Origin: a virus
UHGV virus genome: UHGV-0098755
Strand: one strand, 5' to 3'
DNA: 64,000 bases
Notes under the pieces: generated by a model
Databases searched by the model: none
What the model was told of the DNA's origin: nothing
What the model saw: the letters and a program-made list of their open reading frames with translations, nothing else
In this document: one piece after another, positions 5,791 to 43,550 of the stretch
Numbering within the stretch: the stretch's first letter is position 1
Layout of the letters: each line of letters opens with the position of its first letter
Position numbers and translations under genes: made by a program

Positions 5791-6126
5791 TCACTTATAA
5801 AGACACGGAATAGCTTTATAGTGACAGGTAACAAATTTTTGTTTAATTTCTTTTGGCTGCTTAAGACCCAGAGCTACAAAAGGATGTGGAACGTTTCGAA
5901 TTTGACCAACTGGAAGAGAAGTCAAATCACCAACTTCGCAGAAACCTTCAGGAACATCAGGACCAACAGAGTGAATTACACACAGTTCAGGAACTTCACC
6001 TTGAACACGTTTACCGATAATAAGTCCTGATTCTGTAACTTCTTCATCACCGGCTTGTGCAGGTTCAGAAACTAAAATAACATATTCACCGACAGCACGA
6101 ATTGGTAGCTGTTGTACTTCAGACAT
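5791..6126 (-). CDS. 31: co-chaperonin gp31 (GroES analogue)
   Basis: 111 aa, [22 protein letters not shown] matches my recollection of T4 gp31. Confidence 0.95.
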
Positions 6127-6183
6127 CGTTTTTCCTTTTTTGTTAACAGATAAATTAATAATAACAAATAATTCTTAAAGCAT

Positions 6184-6492
6184 TTATTTACCAATAAATT
6201 GGAGCAAATGCTTAACTTTCATACCATTAACAGAAATCAATTTGTCAATAGAAAAACCTCGCCAAGCGCCAAGTTCAACATCAAATACTGGAATCATATC
6301 CGTAGATTCTTTCCGAGTAGATTCAGTCAATTTACCAGTTTGCATGGTTGGCATAAAGTCTGCATCACGAGTACCTTTCATAGTACGAATAGTACCATCA
6401 GACTTTTCAAAAACTACGTTTGAAACACCCATGGACAATTTAGTTTTCAAAATTTCACGAATTGCTACTTTCTGTTCAGTTGTCAATTTCAT
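6184..6492 (-). CDS. hypothetical protein (102 aa), 31.1-like
   Basis: ORF track; synteny. Confidence 0.6.
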   Translation of the reverse strand: MKLTTEQKVAIREILKTKLSMGVSNVVFEKSDGTIRTMKGTRDADFMPTMQTGKLTESTRKESTDMIPVFDVELGAWRGFSIDKLISVNGMKVKHLLQFIGK

Positions 6493-37327: not shown

Positions 37328-37788
37328 TAGTAAAGGTCCTCAGAGTAAAGTTCTTTTTCACTACCGCCGCGTTCAATACGTACTTGTCCAGCGTAAGTTG
37401 CAATAATCATTGCTTCTTCACGTGTCCAATAATTACTATATTGGTCAATAAACCCTTGGTCATCATCACAAACTTGTTGAGTAACTAATTGGGGTTTAAC
37501 TACATCTAAAACTTCGGCCATATCTTTAGAATAATGACGAGCACCCGGAATAATAAGAGTTCGTCCATCTTTTAATTTAAAACGGTTGGCTGCACAAACA
37601 ATTCGTCGTTGATACTTTTGGTTTTCATCCCAGTATGCAGACTGCCAACAGATTTCAGGAACTTCTTTTAGAATATCTTCTTCTGTGCATTTATAACCAT
37701 GTGCTTTAAATTTTTCAACAAGACTTTCTGGAGTTTCACGAGATAAAGGAACATTCAGCATTTTTAAACGATTAATAAATGGATTCAT
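37327..37788 (-). CDS. hypothetical protein (153 aa)
   Basis: ORF track. Confidence 0.6.
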
Positions 37789-38114
37789 TTAAACCATCCT
37801 TTAATACGCTGCCACAAAGTTTTCTGTTGAGCTTTGTTAACACCAATTGAGCGAATAACTGGTTGAGATTCCTGGAATTCTTTATAATCAGCGAGGTAAA
37901 TTTCGTAAGCTGAATCCGTAAAGGAACTTATCGCTGCCATGAAATTGTTGCGAATACCTACTGGAGCATCTTTACTTTCACGAATAATCATGTATTTACC
38001 GGTCTTAATCTTTACGATAGTTCCAAGATAAGCTCCATGGTACCAGATATCCCACCCCTCTTGAGTGGGTTCTGCACAACGACGAAGTTCATTGATAATT
38101 TCTAACTTGTTCAT
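37785..38114 (-). CDS. hypothetical protein (109 aa)
   Basis: ORF track. Confidence 0.6.
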
Positions 38115-38124
38115 TATTTATTCC

Positions 38125-38760
38125 TCACAGTTCAGATGCTACAGTAATTACAGCTTCAATGTTTTCTGCCGAGCGTTTAATGTCAAGATACACATTACCG
38201 TTTTTAGCGATTTTACATGACATTCCGATATCAGTAAATTTCTGAATATGATGTTCCATCATTTTGTATCCAAAAATTCGCATATTTCCATTGTTGTTAA
38301 TTTCAAAATTACGAATTCCGTGAGTGCGTTTTTCTAAAATAGCGAGATAGTTACTGCGATAAGTTTCAACCTTTTTAAGAACAAATCCATTTTCATCTAA
38401 AAGTTTTAACATGAAGTCTTTATCTTCTTCCATATCAGAAGTAATCTCACGAGCTTTACGAGTTGCTCGTTTTTTCAGCAGTTCTGGAGCATTTTCCTGC
38501 GCGTATAAAGTTGCTGCGTTTGAAATAATATCTTGAGCTTCACCTGTAATGATTAATCCATCACCAGATTTCTCCACCAGGCCTTTTTTAATCAATACCC
38601 CAATATTACTATTAACTACTGCATTACCTAAATCTGGATGCACCTCACGAACTTCTGCGGCTGTAATGAAATCTTTCTTAGCAATAGTAATTAAAATCGC
38701 AGCAGTTTTTTCATTCAGAACATCGTTAGAAGCTTTGATGATGTAAGTTACTTTAGACAT
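38125..38760 (-). CDS. motA: middle transcription activator MotA
   Basis: 211 aa, MSKVTYIIKASNDVLNEKTAAILITIAKKDFIT... Confidence 0.95.
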   Translation of the reverse strand: MSKVTYIIKASNDVLNEKTAAILITIAKKDFITAAEVREVHPDLGNAVVNSNIGVLIKKGLVEKSGDGLIITGEAQDIISNAATLYAQENAPELLKKRATRKAREITSDMEEDKDFMLKLLDENGFVLKKVETYRSNYLAILEKRTHGIRNFEINNNGNMRIFGYKMMEHHIQKFTDIGMSCKIAKNGNVYLDIKRSAENIEAVITVASEL

Positions 38761-38801
38761 TTTCTAATCTCCGTAATTCTGTATCAGTAGTTGATAGTTG
38801 T

Positions 38802-38831
38802 ATAGTACCATAGAATGCTTTGGTTGTAAAC
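38802..38831 (-). promoter_or_regulatory. putative early promoter for motA (-35 GTTTAC, 18-nt spacer, -10 TACTAT) with conserved leader
   Basis: gtaaac at 38826-38831, atagta at 38802-38807; leader ACAACUAUCAACUACUGAUACAG shared with other loci. Confidence 0.5.
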
Positions 38832-38856
38832 CGTTTTGTGAAAAAATTTTTGAAAT

Positions 38857-38882
38857 AAAAAAGGGAGAGCCGAGGCTCTCCC
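38857..38882 (-). terminator. intrinsic terminator (GGGAGAGC-loop-GCUCUCCC plus U6)
   Basis: Hairpin 38863-38882, A-run 38857-38862 on the plus strand. Confidence 0.6.
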
Positions 38883-38887
38883 TAAAA

Positions 38888-39037
38888 TTACTGCATGAAT
38901 GTGATAACTATCATGATAACACGTTGAATTCCGAACGCAAGAAGACCTCCTGCTACGGCTGGAACAACGCCTAAACCCGCCAGTAAAATGCTACCAGATA
39001 CTAATGCAGCGCTTGTAATACCTATGAATGGACTCAT
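38888..39037 (-). CDS. small hydrophobic membrane peptide (49 aa), below ORF-track cut-off
   Basis: MSPFIGITSAALVSGSILLAGLGVVPAVAGGLLAFGIQRVIMIVITFMQ; ATG overlaps the gene 52 stop (ATGA). Confidence 0.55.
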   Translation of the reverse strand: MSPFIGITSAALVSGSILLAGLGVVPAVAGGLLAFGIQRVIMIVITFMQ

Positions 39038-40362
39038 TTGATTTCCTCTAAATCTTTGGTGTATTCAGTAACTACATCAGTAGTTTTCCAATATTCGTTT
39101 TCTTCTTTTTTAGCTTTAGCTTCTTCAGCAAGTTTCTTCGCTTCATCGGAAGTCATATGAAAAATATTCATTCCAACTAGTTTATCAACATAAGAAGAAT
39201 ACATATCGATTTTCGAAAGTTCTTCGGTCAGTTCTTTACGAGTTTTACCTTGTACAACAATTTCACCTGAAATTACTTTCTTAATGAAATGTGCCTTGGC
39301 AAAGGCTAAACGAAATGCTGATTCAGTTTCTTTGATTTTGTTATCAATTCGTTTTTGGACATAAGTTTTACGAACTTCAACAAAGTCTTTAATTAAATCA
39401 ACTACGTTATCGTAAACTTGCAGCTTTCCTTTTTCATTAATGACGGTAATATTCTGGGAACGACGCTCAATCAACCCGAAGTCTTTCATGATTTTTGCAT
39501 GGCGTTCTTCTTCGTTATCGCTCAAAGAGTATTCTTTGCGGAATTTAATTTTAAAGCCAAAACCATGCTCACCACAAGCATCATCCCACGTAATGAAGCC
39601 TTTATCTTCAAGCGGGTCTAAGATTTTACTCACATAAGTTTCACGATCATACTTATACGGAATCTCAGTGATGTGCATTTGAGTTCGTGAAGTAAACTTA
39701 TATGTTCCACGAATTTCATATTGTCCATCAATTTCAACGACTTCACCACGAAATTCTGGGAATTCTACCTTCGGTTTAGTTACTTTCTTTCCTTGAAGAG
39801 CTTGCAGTACAGCTTTCTTAACAGAAGAAACGCTATGAGGAAGAATGTAAGTTGCATAACCAGTTGCAATACCGGAAACGCCATTAAGAAGAACAGTAGG
39901 AATAACAGGCAAATAGAAAGCAGGCGGAATGTGTTCTTTATCTTGATGTACCGGAGCATATTCAGTATCTTTATATACGTTATAGAAATTTTTACTTACA
40001 CGAGCAAAAATATAACGACTTGCTGCTGCTTTTTGAACGGTACGAGAACCAAAGTTTCCTTGACCATCTAATAGAGGAAAGTTATTATTCCAAGTATTAG
40101 CCATCAAAGCACCTGCGTCTTGCGCAGAGTTTTCACCATGATGATATCCAAGGTCCGCTACACCACCTGCAATAGAAGCGAGTTTGTGAAACTTATCTTT
40201 ATTTCCTCGTGCCAAATCAAGAGCTCGAGCAATAACAAATCGTTGAACTGGCTTAAATCCATCAATCATATTTGGAATGGCACGATTTTCAACCGTGTAC
40301 ATAGCATAAGCCAATGCTTCATTATCAATGATACTTTTTAAATCGCGATTATTCAGTTGCAT
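39034..40362 (-). CDS. 52: DNA topoisomerase II medium subunit gp52
   Basis: 442 aa, GyrA-like breakage-reunion domain; MQLNNRDLKSIIDNEALAYAMYTVENRAIP. Confidence 0.95.
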   Translation of the reverse strand: MQLNNRDLKSIIDNEALAYAMYTVENRAIPNMIDGFKPVQRFVIARALDLARGNKDKFHKLASIAGGVADLGYHHGENSAQDAGALMANTWNNNFPLLDGQGNFGSRTVQKAAASRYIFARVSKNFYNVYKDTEYAPVHQDKEHIPPAFYLPVIPTVLLNGVSGIATGYATYILPHSVSSVKKAVLQALQGKKVTKPKVEFPEFRGEVVEIDGQYEIRGTYKFTSRTQMHITEIPYKYDRETYVSKILDPLEDKGFITWDDACGEHGFGFKIKFRKEYSLSDNEEERHAKIMKDFGLIERRSQNITVINEKGKLQVYDNVVDLIKDFVEVRKTYVQKRIDNKIKETESAFRLAFAKAHFIKKVISGEIVVQGKTRKELTEELSKIDMYSSYVDKLVGMNIFHMTSDEAKKLAEEAKAKKEENEYWKTTDVVTEYTKDLEEIK

Positions 40363-40366
40363 AAAT

Positions 40367-40507
40367 TTACCATACTAGTGAATGTAGTGCCATAATAACA
40401 TCAGAAATGAAAAGCACGACTTGAATTAATCCGAACATTACTCCATAATATAGTGCTACCAATAAAGCAGCAAGGGCTACTGAGTAGCCCAAGATTTTCT
40501 TAATCAT
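40367..40507 (-). CDS. small hydrophobic membrane peptide (46 aa)
   Basis: MIKKILGYSVALAALLVALYYGVMFGLIQVVLFISDVIMALHSLVW; start overlaps the end of the ac-like ORF. Confidence 0.5.
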   Translation of the reverse strand: MIKKILGYSVALAALLVALYYGVMFGLIQVVLFISDVIMALHSLVW

Positions 40508-40655
40508 TAGATAACAACGCAAATGTTAAATATGCACACATACCCTGAGCTAAAGCTTGCGAAAACACGCTGCTGACATCAATACAGATAGTTAAAACAC
40601 ATGCTACTATCCAACAAATAAATGAAATAACTCCTAATAATTTTGCGATATTCAT
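40500..40655 (-). CDS. ac: Ac-like small membrane protein (51 aa)
   Basis: MNIAKLLGVISFICWIVACVLTICIDVSS...; GAGGAAAA Shine-Dalgarno; position next to stp as in T4. Confidence 0.55.
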   Translation of the reverse strand: MNIAKLLGVISFICWIVACVLTICIDVSSVFSQALAQGMCAYLTFALLSND

Positions 40656-40662
40656 ATTTTCC

Positions 40663-40743
40663 TCACTGGCGTCCGAAGACGCCTTTAGTTTTAAGATTAT
40701 TACGATAGAACTGCATCACGTGTTCGTTATGGAAATTACTCAT
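40663..40743 (-). CDS. stp: Stp peptide (suppressor of three-prime phosphatase; PrrC/EcoprrI modulator)
   Basis: 26-aa [29 protein letters not shown] matching my recollection of T4 Stp; contains GGCGUC-UUCG-GACGCC hairpin. Confidence 0.85.
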
Positions 40744-41201
40744 TAATATGCCTGCAAAACAAATTTAAAGTTATCAGCCAACATACGGTTCATTTCTTCA
40801 AGTGTTTGATACTCAGAATGATGATTACGAGTAAACGCCAAAGCTAACTGACCTTTACCAAATCCCGTCGTCAGAGGTTTCATCTTAGAAGCAGGCAGAT
40901 AAAACACTGTGTATGGAACATTGTTATTTGCAATAGTACGCGCAAGTTGAGACCGGCGTTGACGAATATGACTTAAAACCGCACTGAATCCTTGCTTAGA
41001 ACGCTGATTACCTACATAAAATCGCGCAGATACACACGGACTATCAAATGGACGACCATCTAATTTACTTACTAAAAAGTAAAATCCAGGTTTAGATAAA
41101 ATATCTTTATGTGGAACTCCCAAAAACCATTCACCGTTCTTGATTGTACCAATAACGGTAGCGCCTGCATTGTTCAGATCAGTAACAGTCATATATTTCA
41201 T
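40743..41201 (-). CDS. ndd: nucleoid disruption protein Ndd
   Basis: 152 aa from ATG at 41201 ([25 protein letters not shown]...) with GAGGAAA Shine-Dalgarno; the track ORF starts 16 codons upstream. Confidence 0.85.
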
Positions 41202-41261
41202 ATTAATTTCCTCTAAATTATTTTCTACTCCAAGGCCGCATGAATACACACGGCCATTAAA

Positions 41262-41477
41262 TTAATCATCGCAGTCGACGCTTAATTCCCAGAACTCTTC
41301 TACAGTATAAGTTTCAGTATCATTTTCAATACAGAAACGTTCATTACTATTATTTGCTAAAGTAGCATTAACTGTCGGTTTCTCGCTAGTGCTCTTAAGA
41401 GGTGAAATACGAATTAACTGATCACCGTTATCTAAACAAAAAATTTCACCAACTTTTACATCTTTAAAACTTTTCAT
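41262..41477 (-). CDS. hypothetical protein (71 aa), ndd.x
   Basis: ORF track. Confidence 0.55.
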   Translation of the reverse strand: MKSFKDVKVGEIFCLDNGDQLIRISPLKSTSEKPTVNATLANNSNERFCIENDTETYTVEEFWELSVDCDD

Positions 41478-41592
41478 AATTCACCTCAGGGAGTATAAAA
41501 TCCAAATGCAGTTGTTGACCATCCCATCCAATATGGAAAATTTGCGCCAATGTAAAACATAAGAATATAAAACCAAATGTTTAGTAAATTCA

Positions 41593-41790
41593 TCATTTTA
41601 CACCATTCCAAATTGTTTCAACTACGGATTTTAAACCATTTTGATGAATATCAATTCCGACTACTGTCATCAAATAGATTCCAACCACAACTGAACCCAA
41701 GGCAAAAATCAGCATGAAAATGAATAAAGCTGGAAAAATATTATCGAAAAACCATTCCATAAATGTAAAAGCACTGCGTTTACGCTTCAT
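41593..41790 (-). CDS. small membrane protein (65 aa from ATG at 41790)
   Basis: Hydrophobic core FPALFIFMLIFALGSVVVGIYLMTVVGI; GAGGAAAA Shine-Dalgarno. Confidence 0.5.
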   Translation of the reverse strand: MKRKRSAFTFMEWFFDNIFPALFIFMLIFALGSVVVGIYLMTVVGIDIHQNGLKSVVETIWNGVK

Positions 41791-41797
41791 ATTTTCC

Positions 41798-41911
41798 TCA
41801 CATAAATCCAAAGTAAGCGTTTAATACATCAATCATTAAAACGATTGGGAATATACTCAAAACTACTAGTATTATAACTACATTCCATATAGCTTTAACA
41901 ATCTTTTTCAT
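41798..41911 (-). CDS. small membrane peptide (37 aa from ATG at 41911)
   Basis: MKKIVKAIWNVVIILVVLSIFPIVLMIDVLNAYFGFM; GGAGGAACAGAA Shine-Dalgarno; the track's 69-aa version reads through the promoter. Confidence 0.45.
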   Translation of the reverse strand: MKKIVKAIWNVVIILVVLSIFPIVLMIDVLNAYFGFM

Positions 41912-41938
41912 TTCTGTTCCTCCGTAGTTGATAGGGTA

Positions 41939-41968
41939 ATAATACCACAGAGGAACAGTCTTGTAAAC
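41939..41968 (-). promoter_or_regulatory. putative early promoter (-35 GTTTAC, 18-nt spacer, -10 TATTAT)
   Basis: gtaaac at 41963-41968, ataata at 41939-41944. Confidence 0.45.
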
Positions 41969-42153
41969 AACTTTTTTAAAAATATTCGTAATAAATGTGA
42001 ATACCAACTACTACTGCTGAAACTTGTACAACCCACCATGCACAAGCAATAAGTACAGAATTCAAAATTTTCATAATAACCTCATCACAAAAGTAAATGT
42101 TAAACAAATTACTGGAATACTAATTAACCAAACAAAACACCACCATAATGAAC

Positions 42154-42426
42154 TCATAGTTCAATCTCAGCGATTTTCATTTCATTACTATTAATAGCCG
42201 CTTTAAGACTATCTGAAAGAATTACATTCCAGTGGTCATTCATATGACCATTGACTAAGCGTGTAATTTCTTCGGGAGTTGAAAAATAAGGCGTATCAGA
42301 CTCCCAGTGCGATAGTCCCAAGCGAGTATAAATCATACCTTCATCATCGCTAGAATATTCAACTGACACAAACTCATCAGTTATTTTATGTTTAGCGTAA
42401 TAAAATTTAAATTTCATTTTACTCAA
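42154..42426 (-). CDS. hypothetical protein (90 aa)
   Basis: ORF track. Confidence 0.55.
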   Translation of the reverse strand: MSKMKFKFYYAKHKITDEFVSVEYSSDDEGMIYTRLGLSHWESDTPYFSTPEEITRLVNGHMNDHWNVILSDSLKAAINSNEMKIAEIEL

Positions 42427-42629
42427 TAATCCGCTAAAAGATCGACGATTGCATCACGAAGACACTTATTCGCAATACGTTTAAGAGCAATTTCAGTTTC
42501 TGGGGCATTTTGAATAATCATTGAATTCAATTCAGCCTCAGCAAACTGAAGTTCTTTAACTAATTCAGCTTTATATTTTCCTTGTCCTTTCTTAGCTTTT
42601 GCTCGTTTTAGTTCAGCTGTAGTAAACAT
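42423..42629 (-). CDS. hypothetical protein (68 aa from ATG at 42629)
   Basis: GGAGAATAAA Shine-Dalgarno before MFTTAELKRAKAKKG...; the track's 102-aa version reads through the upstream promoter. Confidence 0.55.
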   Translation of the reverse strand: MFTTAELKRAKAKKGQGKYKAELVKELQFAEAELNSMIIQNAPETEIALKRIANKCLRDAIVDLLADY

Positions 42630-42663
42630 TTTATTCTCCAAATCTGTATCAGTTGATAGTTGT

Positions 42664-42693
42664 ATAGTACCACAGTCCTTGTGGTATGTAAAC
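42664..42693 (-). promoter_or_regulatory. putative early promoter (-35 GTTTAC, 18-nt spacer, -10 TACTAT), spacer palindrome CCACAAGGACUGUGG
   Basis: gtaaac at 42688-42693, atagta at 42664-42669. Confidence 0.5.
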
Positions 42694-42712
42694 CGTTTTG
42701 TGAAAAATTTTT

Positions 42713-43270
42713 TTAAATGGAAAGATACCATCCGTTGTAGTTGCTTTTTCTTACAACCTTACGAAGGTCTTCTCTATCACCGATGAACTTCGGAGTGTAC
42801 TGGATGACACCTGGATAAATTTCTTTAGTGTTGAATATAATTATACAGTCAGCGACTTGATGATTCAGAATGGGCCCTAGATTTATTCCAGAACCGTATG
42901 GATACTCTCCGCTGCATCCTGTTGTTACAGAAATCCAACGTGAGTCAGTTTGGTGTGTCTTAACTTCTACACGAAGCCCGCAGTATCTTGGATGCGCCAA
43001 TACATCCCATGCGTATGTATACGGGTCATTAACATCCTCTTGGCCTTTGTTAACATACCCGCTTAGCCAATCTGCTACAAAAAACTCTGCATACACAGCG
43101 ATACGGCATCTTTCGATGACTTCTGCTTTATCCTGATTTGGATTTTGTTTTAAAGAGTATCTTGCTGTATCAGCAATTTTGACCTTCATTTCACTAGTCA
43201 AGTCATTGTTCGACATGGTAAATGCCGGAATCTGAAACAGTCTCTGTAAACCCGGATTCGTTTTCTGCAT
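42713..43270 (-). CDS. denB: endonuclease IV
   Basis: 185 aa, position between ndd.x genes and rIIB as in T4. Confidence 0.8.
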   Translation of the reverse strand: MQKTNPGLQRLFQIPAFTMSNNDLTSEMKVKIADTARYSLKQNPNQDKAEVIERCRIAVYAEFFVADWLSGYVNKGQEDVNDPYTYAWDVLAHPRYCGLRVEVKTHQTDSRWISVTTGCSGEYPYGSGINLGPILNHQVADCIIIFNTKEIYPGVIQYTPKFIGDREDLRKVVRKSNYNGWYLSI

Positions 43271-43327
43271 TGAACTTTCCTTTTACGTCGGAATCACTGA
43301 TATTCATACAATAAATCATAGTTTCCC

Positions 43328-43352
43328 TTAAAACAAAAGGGCCGAAGCCCTT
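43328..43352 (-). terminator. terminator-like UUCG hairpin (AAGGGC-UUCG-GCCCUU) followed by a U-rich tract
   Basis: Hairpin 43337-43352 immediately after stop at 43356. Confidence 0.5.
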
Positions 43353-43355
43353 ATT

Positions 43356-43550
43356 TTATTTGAATTGCGCAATTCTTTTTTCTAAACAATCTGCGTAAGA
43401 TTTCATTGAGATGAACTGTGAAAGCAGTAATTCTTGTTCAACTTCATTAATCGTTAGAAACTTTGTGCTTTCTAAAAATTTGCTCAGTGCATTAATTTTG
43501 AGCATTAATTGATCGTATTCTTCTTTTACTCGTGCTTGATAACCTAACAT
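43356..43550 (-). CDS. hypothetical protein (64 aa)
   Basis: ORF track. Confidence 0.55.
   Translation of the reverse strand: MLGYQARVKEEYDQLMLKINALSKFLESTKFLTINEVEQELLLSQFISMKSYADCLEKRIAQFK

Follow-up and report, generated by a model that had tools for sequence, protein, structure and literature searches.

A cluster of very small, mostly hydrophobic peptide genes around gene 52 and ndd in the early region of a T4-like phage

The virus genome UHGV-0098755, analysed here as a stretch of 64,000 nucleotides (the window), represents an ordinary member of the genus Tequatrovirus (T4-like phages) and carries a cluster of very small genes around gene 52 and ndd. A first-pass annotation made from the sequence alone had listed eight such open reading frames (ORFs); all eight exist, on the minus strand and with ATG starts, where they had been placed, and a ninth, ndd.2 (41486-41596), was absent from that list. 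The gene order is the one annotated in T4 and RB14, and, judged by sequence, the cluster is already known, each ORF corresponding to an annotated T4 gene. The cluster is the T4-type counterpart of the non-essential early region between denB and motA, which is classically called the 'D region'. The small genes and the larger genes among which they lie are the following.

38888-39037, minus strand: motA.1, 49 amino acids, Gly/Ala-rich and hydrophobic (ORF, ATG start)
39034-40362, minus strand: gene 52, topoisomerase II medium subunit (ORF)
40367-40507, minus strand: 52.1, 46 amino acids, membrane micro-protein (ORF, ATG start)
40500-40655, minus strand: ac, 51 amino acids, two hydrophobic segments (ORF, ATG start)
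40663-40743, minus strand: stp, 26 amino acids, hydrophilic (ORF, ATG start)
40743-41201, minus strand: ndd (ORF)
41262-41477, minus strand: ndd.1 (ORF)
41486-41596, minus strand: ndd.2, 36 amino acids (35 from the second ATG), aromatic-rich (ORF)
41593-41790, minus strand: ndd.2a, 65 amino acids (ORF, ATG start)
41798-41911, minus strand: ndd.4, 37 amino acids (ORF, ATG start)
41976-42074, minus strand: ndd.5, 32 amino acids, single transmembrane segment (ORF, ATG start)
42071-42157, minus strand: ndd.6, 28 amino acids, single transmembrane segment (ORF, ATG start)

The nine small ORFs are orthologues of annotated T4 genes, are selected as proteins and have starts that are either coupled to an upstream gene or led by a Shine-Dalgarno (SD) sequence. 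Each of the nine has a full-length match to a PHROG family, with E values of 1e-17 to 1e-31, and three have Pfam matches when judged against the curated cut-offs (PF08133 for stp, DUF7396 for 52.1 and DUF7248 for ndd.2a). Their products are 91-100% identical in amino acid sequence to the T4 orthologues, and order, strand and coupling junctions are the same as in the T4 reference (NC_000866, T4p263-T4p275). Selection was assessed in a sample of 13 sequences, comprising the window and 12 other Tequatrovirus sequences (T4, RB14, FL12, KRT47, PP01, SP21535, FJ1 and five IMG/VR contigs); a scan of IMG/VR with Ndd gave five loci, and most of the comparison sequences come from GenBank phage records. 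When pooled over the nine small ORFs, the ratio of non-synonymous to synonymous substitution rates (dN/dS, Nei-Gojobori method) is 0.15 in the annotated frame versus 1.05 and 1.44 in the two shifted frames, and these are therefore protein-coding genes under purifying selection; values for single genes range from 0.02 (stp) up to 0.21 (motA.1 and 52.1). Conservation among T4-like genomes, which the first-pass annotation had named as a check, is borne out: with few exceptions, the other 12 Tequatrovirus sequences have the frames undisrupted, and the families reach beyond the genus, with protein homologues of 52.1, ndd.2a, ndd.4 and ndd.6 in other genera at 31-93% identity. A 4-kb query reaching from motA to the ORFs past ndd.6 matched 888 phage records, with a top identity of 96.8%, and the ndd.2-ndd.6 block matched 575, of which 492 had at least 80% query coverage. 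With a 24-kb query the top identity to any phage record is ~94%, and hence no record in the phage collection matches this phage exactly. Collectively, the annotation of T4 and RB14, the family matches, the purifying selection and the gene junctions agree with the original claim that these are real small peptide genes, and chance ORFs are excluded.

The translation signals are likewise as first described, each of the nine small ORFs having an SD, a stop-start coupling or both. ATGA overlaps place the start of motA.1 on the gene 52 stop, that of ndd.2 on the ndd.2a stop, that of ndd.5 on the ndd.6 stop and that of ndd.6 on the stop of an 87-amino-acid ORF, whereas the stp start overlaps the ndd stop as TAATG and the beginning of 52.1 shares 8 nt with the end of ac. 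GAGG or GGAGG sequences stand ahead of motA.1 (GAGG, within the end of gene 52), ac (its own GAGG; this gene starts 7 nt past stp), ndd.2a, ndd.4 (GGAGG) and ndd.5 (GAGG). A stable UUCG-tetraloop hairpin, GGCGUCUUCGGACGCC (40668-40683, minus strand), occupies the last codons at the 3' end of stp, directly 5' of the ac SD, and ac and ndd.2a are preceded by one and the same 15-nt junction, GTGAGGAAAATATGAA. Over positions 37500-43500, Rfam returned one sub-threshold chance match only.

Hydropathy was evaluated by the grand average of hydropathy (GRAVY) and by the best 19-residue Kyte-Doolittle window. The label 'hydrophobic', originally given to the whole list, holds for seven of its eight ORFs, for which GRAVY is 0.81-1.80 and the best window 2.26-3.05, and fails for Stp (GRAVY -1.03). 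The N-termini of 52.1, ndd.2a and ndd.4 are basic. MotA.1 is 96% identical to its T4 counterpart (phrog_3487, E 1e-30) and was found in 493 phage records, all of close T4 relatives, at 80-100% identity. By comparison, 52.1 (98% identical to T4 gp52.1; phrog_3595; DUF7396 at 79.8 bits over residues 1-46, cut-off 27) occurs in 813 phage records from several genera, with protein homologues in Mosig-, Dhaka-, Gapriver-, Jiaoda-, Winkler- and Karamvirus. The names that had been proposed for the ac-like peptide and Stp are both right. Ac shares 49 of its 51 residues (96%) with T4 Ac (phrog_2501, E 4e-24), the allele in the window carrying A27V and V46A relative to T4 with G38 present, and has homologues in Mosig- and Jiaodavirus. 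Stp is identical to T4 Stp in 26 of 26 residues (phrog_6763; PF08133 at 75.3 bits, cut-off 25) and lies directly downstream of ndd and upstream of ac, as in T4; in sequence and in its position after ndd it thus equals the T4 member of the PF08133 anticodon nuclease activators, and no difference was detected. MotA.1, Ndd.2, Ndd.4, Ndd.5 and Ndd.6 all have full-length PHROG matches and occupy the T4 positions. Ndd.2 is 91% identical to T4 Ndd.2 (phrog_4135, E 3e-23; dN/dS 0.19). Ndd.2a, with KRKR at its N-terminus, a single transmembrane segment and, at the C-terminus, an amphipathic tail of ~20 amino acids, matches DUF7248 over residues 5-63 at 69.7 bits (cut-off 27; phrog_2401; dN/dS 0.07) and has homologues in Winkler- and Jiaodavirus, while at the same position in Karamvirus there is a 68-amino-acid ORF in which BLAST saw no similarity. 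Ndd.4 (phrog_3098, E 3e-21) combines a KK..K N-terminus with one transmembrane segment and is 39-64% identical to its homologues in Dhaka-, Gapriver- and Karamvirus. Ndd.5 is 97% identical to T4 Ndd.5 (phrog_5011, E 2e-25; dN/dS 0.09), and Ndd.6, which is 100% identical to T4 Ndd.6 (phrog_8851, E 2e-17; dN/dS 0.11), has a 29-amino-acid homologue in Dhakavirus JS10. Lipobox-like motifs, candidate sites of lipoprotein-type processing, are present in Ac (IVAC) and Ndd.5 (LIAC).

The small genes are predicted to be transcribed in two sigma-70 early units that share one terminator past motA.1. This terminator, the sole strong one located, consists of a 9-pair stem with six G-C pairs followed by TTTTTTATTT. 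Three early promoters, ahead of motA, ndd.4 and a 68-amino-acid ORF, are mutually similar over ~60 nt, each combining GTTTACA with an extended -10 element and, upstream, an A/T tract. The signals and the remaining genes are as follows.

38125-38760, minus strand: motA (ORF)
38802-38830, minus strand: early promoter upstream of motA, resembling the two other early promoters
38862-38883, minus strand: predicted intrinsic terminator, 5 nt past the motA.1 stop, closing the early unit
41939-41967, minus strand: T4-type early promoter upstream of ndd.4 (TTTACA, 17-nt spacer, TATTAT, extended -10 TG)
42154-42417, minus strand: 87-amino-acid ORF
42423-42629, minus strand: 68-amino-acid ORF
42664-42692, minus strand: predicted second T4-type early promoter, serving the 68- and 87-amino-acid ORFs, then ndd.6 and ndd.5
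42713-43270, minus strand: denB (ORF)

In T4, motA.1, 52.1, ac, stp and ndd.2 to ndd.6 are all assigned to the early RNA class (Table S2 of Wolfram-Schauerte et al., PMC9697503), and Ndd and Ndd.1 were seen as early proteins in the same study. The 87- and 68-amino-acid ORFs match RB32ORF266c and RB14ncORF269c of RB14 and, as in that phage, lie between ndd.6 and denB, whereas T4 has neither; the gene content of this interval varies among close relatives, and most of those compared have only one of the pair. The promoter upstream of motA comes after a terminator stem-loop, as in the promoter-early stem-loop (PeSL) cassettes of T4-like hyperplastic regions, to which modular shuffling of these genomes has been linked (PMC4122927). 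The likeness includes the promoter repeats at 41939-41967 and 42664-42692, which flank variable genes; it is one of sequence and would bear on reshuffling, not on peptide function.

The first-pass annotation had mentioned superinfection, efflux and defence modulators among such peptides of T-even phages. A defence-related role is documented, for Stp only: according to PMC1484252, this T4 peptide inhibits EcoprrI, a type Ic restriction enzyme, and thereby activates PrrC, an anticodon nuclease; given the sequence identity, Stp of the window would be expected to play the same part. The efflux role of Ac has the standing of a proposal. T4 with ac deleted is acriflavine-resistant, as is the Ac G38R mutant, and E. 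coli cells that express Ac survive acriflavine and ampicillin less well (bioRxiv 10.1101/2025.06.30.662393); that Ac blocks AcrAB-TolC efflux was put forward by the same authors without direct evidence, and is restated as an assumption in PMC13250531. The T4 deletion saDelta9, which removes 52.1, ac, stp, ndd, ndd.1 to ndd.6 and denB, is viable with 50% of the wild-type yield and abolishes the post-infection stimulation of phospholipid synthesis, of phosphatidylglycerol above all (PMC6071114); the seven other small genes are without known function (PMC6071114). A full-text literature search with the gene names returned the Kutter 2018 review only.

We consider it probable that the locus as a whole is a set of T4-type early-region orthologues in which eight early inner-membrane micro-proteins modulate host membrane components, Stp being the soluble exception. 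As micro-proteins of one or two helices, the eight peptides would enter the inner membrane of the host in the first minutes after infection, and each would bind a host membrane component. Ac would raise intracellular acridine, most likely through the AcrAB-TolC block proposed in the literature; 52.1 and/or ndd.2 to ndd.6 may underlie the phosphatidylglycerol stimulation lost in saDelta9; and Stp, as a soluble 26-residue inhibitor of EcoprrI, would lead to release of the PrrC anticodon nuclease. A chain of translational coupling would run from 52.1 through gene 52 to motA.1. Targeting of host components is inferred, because phenotypes that indicate particular targets come from Ac and saDelta9 alone. 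AcrZ is a small bacterial inner-membrane regulator that binds AcrB. Ac, proposed to act on AcrAB-TolC, is of similar size (~50 amino acids) and likewise of helical transmembrane character; it differs in being the product of a phage-encoded early gene, and its binding to AcrB is a proposal from the literature. The resemblance, if any, would be in mode of action only.

Several observations weigh against this reading. All nine genes have protein class 'NA' in a T4 proteome covering 85% of T4 proteins (PMC9697503), and this non-detection is the main gap in the evidence; it is weak evidence against translation, because tryptic liquid chromatography-mass spectrometry can be expected to miss hydrophobic peptides that are 26-65 residues long and have few tryptic sites or none. 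The literature search found no ribosome profiling of T4 infection. Sequence searches of the PDB with Ac, 52.1, MotA.1 and Ndd.2a yielded nothing significant, that is, no structure or structural relative, and BLASTP of Ac against the AcrZ sequence used here gave no local alignment at E <= 100. Ndd.2 is moderately hydrophobic and stays below the classical transmembrane threshold, with a best window of 1.29. The four variable sites of ndd.4 in the 13 sequences are all non-synonymous, with zero synonymous, and therefore dN/dS alone gives this gene no support. Finally, motA.1 is frameshifted by a 1-nt indel in phage FJ1, and both ac and ndd.2 of SP21535 begin with divergent sequence that lacks the usual start codon; these changes are either sequencing errors or natural losses of single micro-genes, and they make individual genes appear dispensable.

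The hydrophobic peptides might instead be counter-defence or exclusion factors acting against membrane abortive-infection systems or superinfecting phage, like T4 Imm, Sp and rII. Indeed, the cluster adjoins rIIB and rIIA, includes the defence-related Stp, and has on its flanks repeated early-promoter cassettes, elements of a type that has been linked to modular shuffling; its genes are non-essential in laboratory strains, and their content differs between genera, like that of accessory host-range genes. However, no such phenotype has been reported for any of the peptides and no matched PHROG family is annotated with such a function, and we regard this explanation as unlikely.

Other alternatives concern the surroundings of gene 52. 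This gene has no SD, and its ATG lies 4 nt past the 52.1 stop in the window and 4-6 nt past it in all seven Tevenvirinae genera examined, in each of which gene 52 is equally SD-less. The sole G-rich element at the junction (40355-40385 in the window) is the conserved C-terminal Trp codon of 52.1 together with the stop (TGG TAA/TGA/TAG), whereas in an Acinetobacter phage whose gene 52 has no neighbouring 52.1, a canonical SD, GAGGAA, precedes the gene. This pattern suggests termination-reinitiation coupling from 52.1 to gene 52. At the other end of the gene, a hydrophobic micro-ORF of 23-49 amino acids starts on the gene 52 stop (ATGA, TTGA or TAATG) in six of the seven genera (Tequatro-, Mosig-, Dhaka-, Winkler-, Gapriver- and Jiaodavirus, not Karamvirus CC31), with its SD (GGAGG/GAGG) inside the last gene 52 codons. 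The peptides belong to at least four unrelated sequence groups, and the T4-type motA.1 and the P479 ORF are the only annotated ones, the micro-ORF being missing from most non-Tequatrovirus annotations. Among the start codons in these loci, 2.6% open an ORF of at least 23 amino acids with a comparable hydropathy peak, which gives P ~2e-9 for six of seven, although fewer cases are effectively independent, because the Dhaka- and Gaprivervirus peptides are homologous. Given the position and coupling conserved in six genera, motA.1 is therefore better seen as one version of a 'post-52' transmembrane micro-ORF. None of the Krisch-, Tulane-, Schizotequatro- and Hadassahvirus phages examined showed this arrangement. 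For the post-52 ORF, a cis-acting role (coupling, mRNA localisation) and a partnership with topoisomerase are minority possibilities.

Extended to both flanking genes, the first of these ideas holds that 52.1 and motA.1 act mainly in cis, delivering ribosomes to the SD-less gene 52 and perhaps tethering the mRNA to the membrane, with peptides of little function in trans. The spacing between 52.1 and gene 52 in seven genera and the GAGGAA of the Acinetobacter phage fit such a role, as does the post-52 ORF, which in six of the seven genera keeps its position, coupling and transmembrane character and not its sequence. Nevertheless, the conservation of 52.1 exceeds what hydrophobicity needs, given its dN/dS and its 93% identity between Tequatro- and Dhakavirus, where gp52 reaches 81%, and an ORF downstream of gene 52 cannot aid initiation of gene 52; a predominantly cis function is thus rather improbable. 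We would give about the same small weight to a broader scheme in which gene 52 is bracketed by coupled transmembrane micro-proteins, the conserved 52.1 and the fast-evolving post-52 ORF, that serve as stoichiometric anchors or localisers of topoisomerase or mRNA, whereas Ac and Ndd.2 to Ndd.6 are single-helix silencers of different host membrane machines (efflux, phospholipid synthesis); if true, the gene 52 micro-proteins would tie the replication-initiation machinery to the inner membrane.

It is very unlikely that 52.1 and/or the post-52 peptide anchor the T4 topoisomerase (gp39/gp52/gp60) to the membrane, or partner it, in stoichiometric amounts. Tevenvirinae have conserved the coupling upstream and downstream of gene 52, coupling being a typical feature of subunits produced at a constant ratio, and T4 DNA-delay proteins are classically described as membrane-associated. 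However, the post-52 peptide comes in several unrelated families and is missing in CC31; the Krisch-, Tulane- and Schizotequatrovirus phages examined show neither of the two flanking micro-ORFs; saDelta9, which lacks 52.1, is viable; and FJ1 has a frameshifted motA.1. Lastly, the notion that the frames are untranslated chance openings in AT-rich, T-rich DNA or annotation artefacts, which could appeal to the silence of T4 proteomics, to the many deposited genomes that leave the frames unannotated and to the lack of synonymous variation in ndd.4, is effectively refuted by conservation, namely the contrast between the annotated and shifted frames, the intact ORFs within Tequatrovirus and the homologues in other genera, and also has against it the SD or coupling at every ORF and the genetics of ac and stp.

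We return to the reading of the cluster as T4-type early genes with several points that go beyond their current annotation, and which are side results of this analysis: the post-52 micro-ORF described above, the origin of 'ndd.3' and the nucleotide conservation of ndd.4. In the T4 reference, ndd.2a is split into 'ndd.3' (26 amino acids, in the wrong frame) and a 40-amino-acid 'ndd.2a', whereas the window has the intact 65-codon gene. The annotation of 'ndd.3' arises because one G is missing from codons 2-3 of ndd.2a in the reference, which reads ATGAA-CGT versus ATGAAGCGT (5933-6129 of the extracted T4 locus). The intact form is present in the window, in RB14, in T4 strain 147 as resequenced and in ten further Tequatrovirus sequences, and the T4 reference is the sole exception among the 12 other sequences of the selection sample, 11 of which have ndd.2a intact; 'ndd.3' is thus most likely an artefact of a sequencing error in the reference or of a strain-specific deletion. 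A further difference concerns ndd.4, which in T4 is annotated from five codons upstream (MEEQK; 6137-6265 of the extracted T4 locus), with the ATG inside the GGAGG SD. In the window the corresponding codon is ACG and not ATG (41912-41926), and the conserved ndd.4 product is therefore the 37-amino-acid form annotated in RB14.

Beyond its present annotation, ndd.4 is unusually conserved at the nucleotide level. Its nucleotide diversity, 0.015, is the lowest in the region (0.024-0.072 for its neighbours), and identity is at least 99% in 223 of 536 matching phage records (~495 of them Tequatrovirus-level), compared with 3 for an equal-length ndd.5 control. RNA structure as the cause was considered and is unsupported, the fold having a z score of -1.16, with 23 of 200 shuffles folding equally well.

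More generally, this is a well-catalogued and poorly understood T4 region, whose eight hydrophobic micro-proteins are conserved in ~500-800 sequenced phages, have transcripts that are made minutes into infection and belong to a class, small membrane proteins, that is a recognised blind spot of annotation and proteomics. The functional leads are acriflavine sensitivity, possibly through efflux, in the case of Ac, and the loss of phospholipid-synthesis stimulation in saDelta9. Public records leave 52.1 and stp unannotated in many genomes, and elsewhere name ndd.4 'naphthalene 1,2-dioxygenase', motA.1 'transcriptional regulator' and MotA 'flagellar motor protein', a misnaming that is propagated from the gene symbols.

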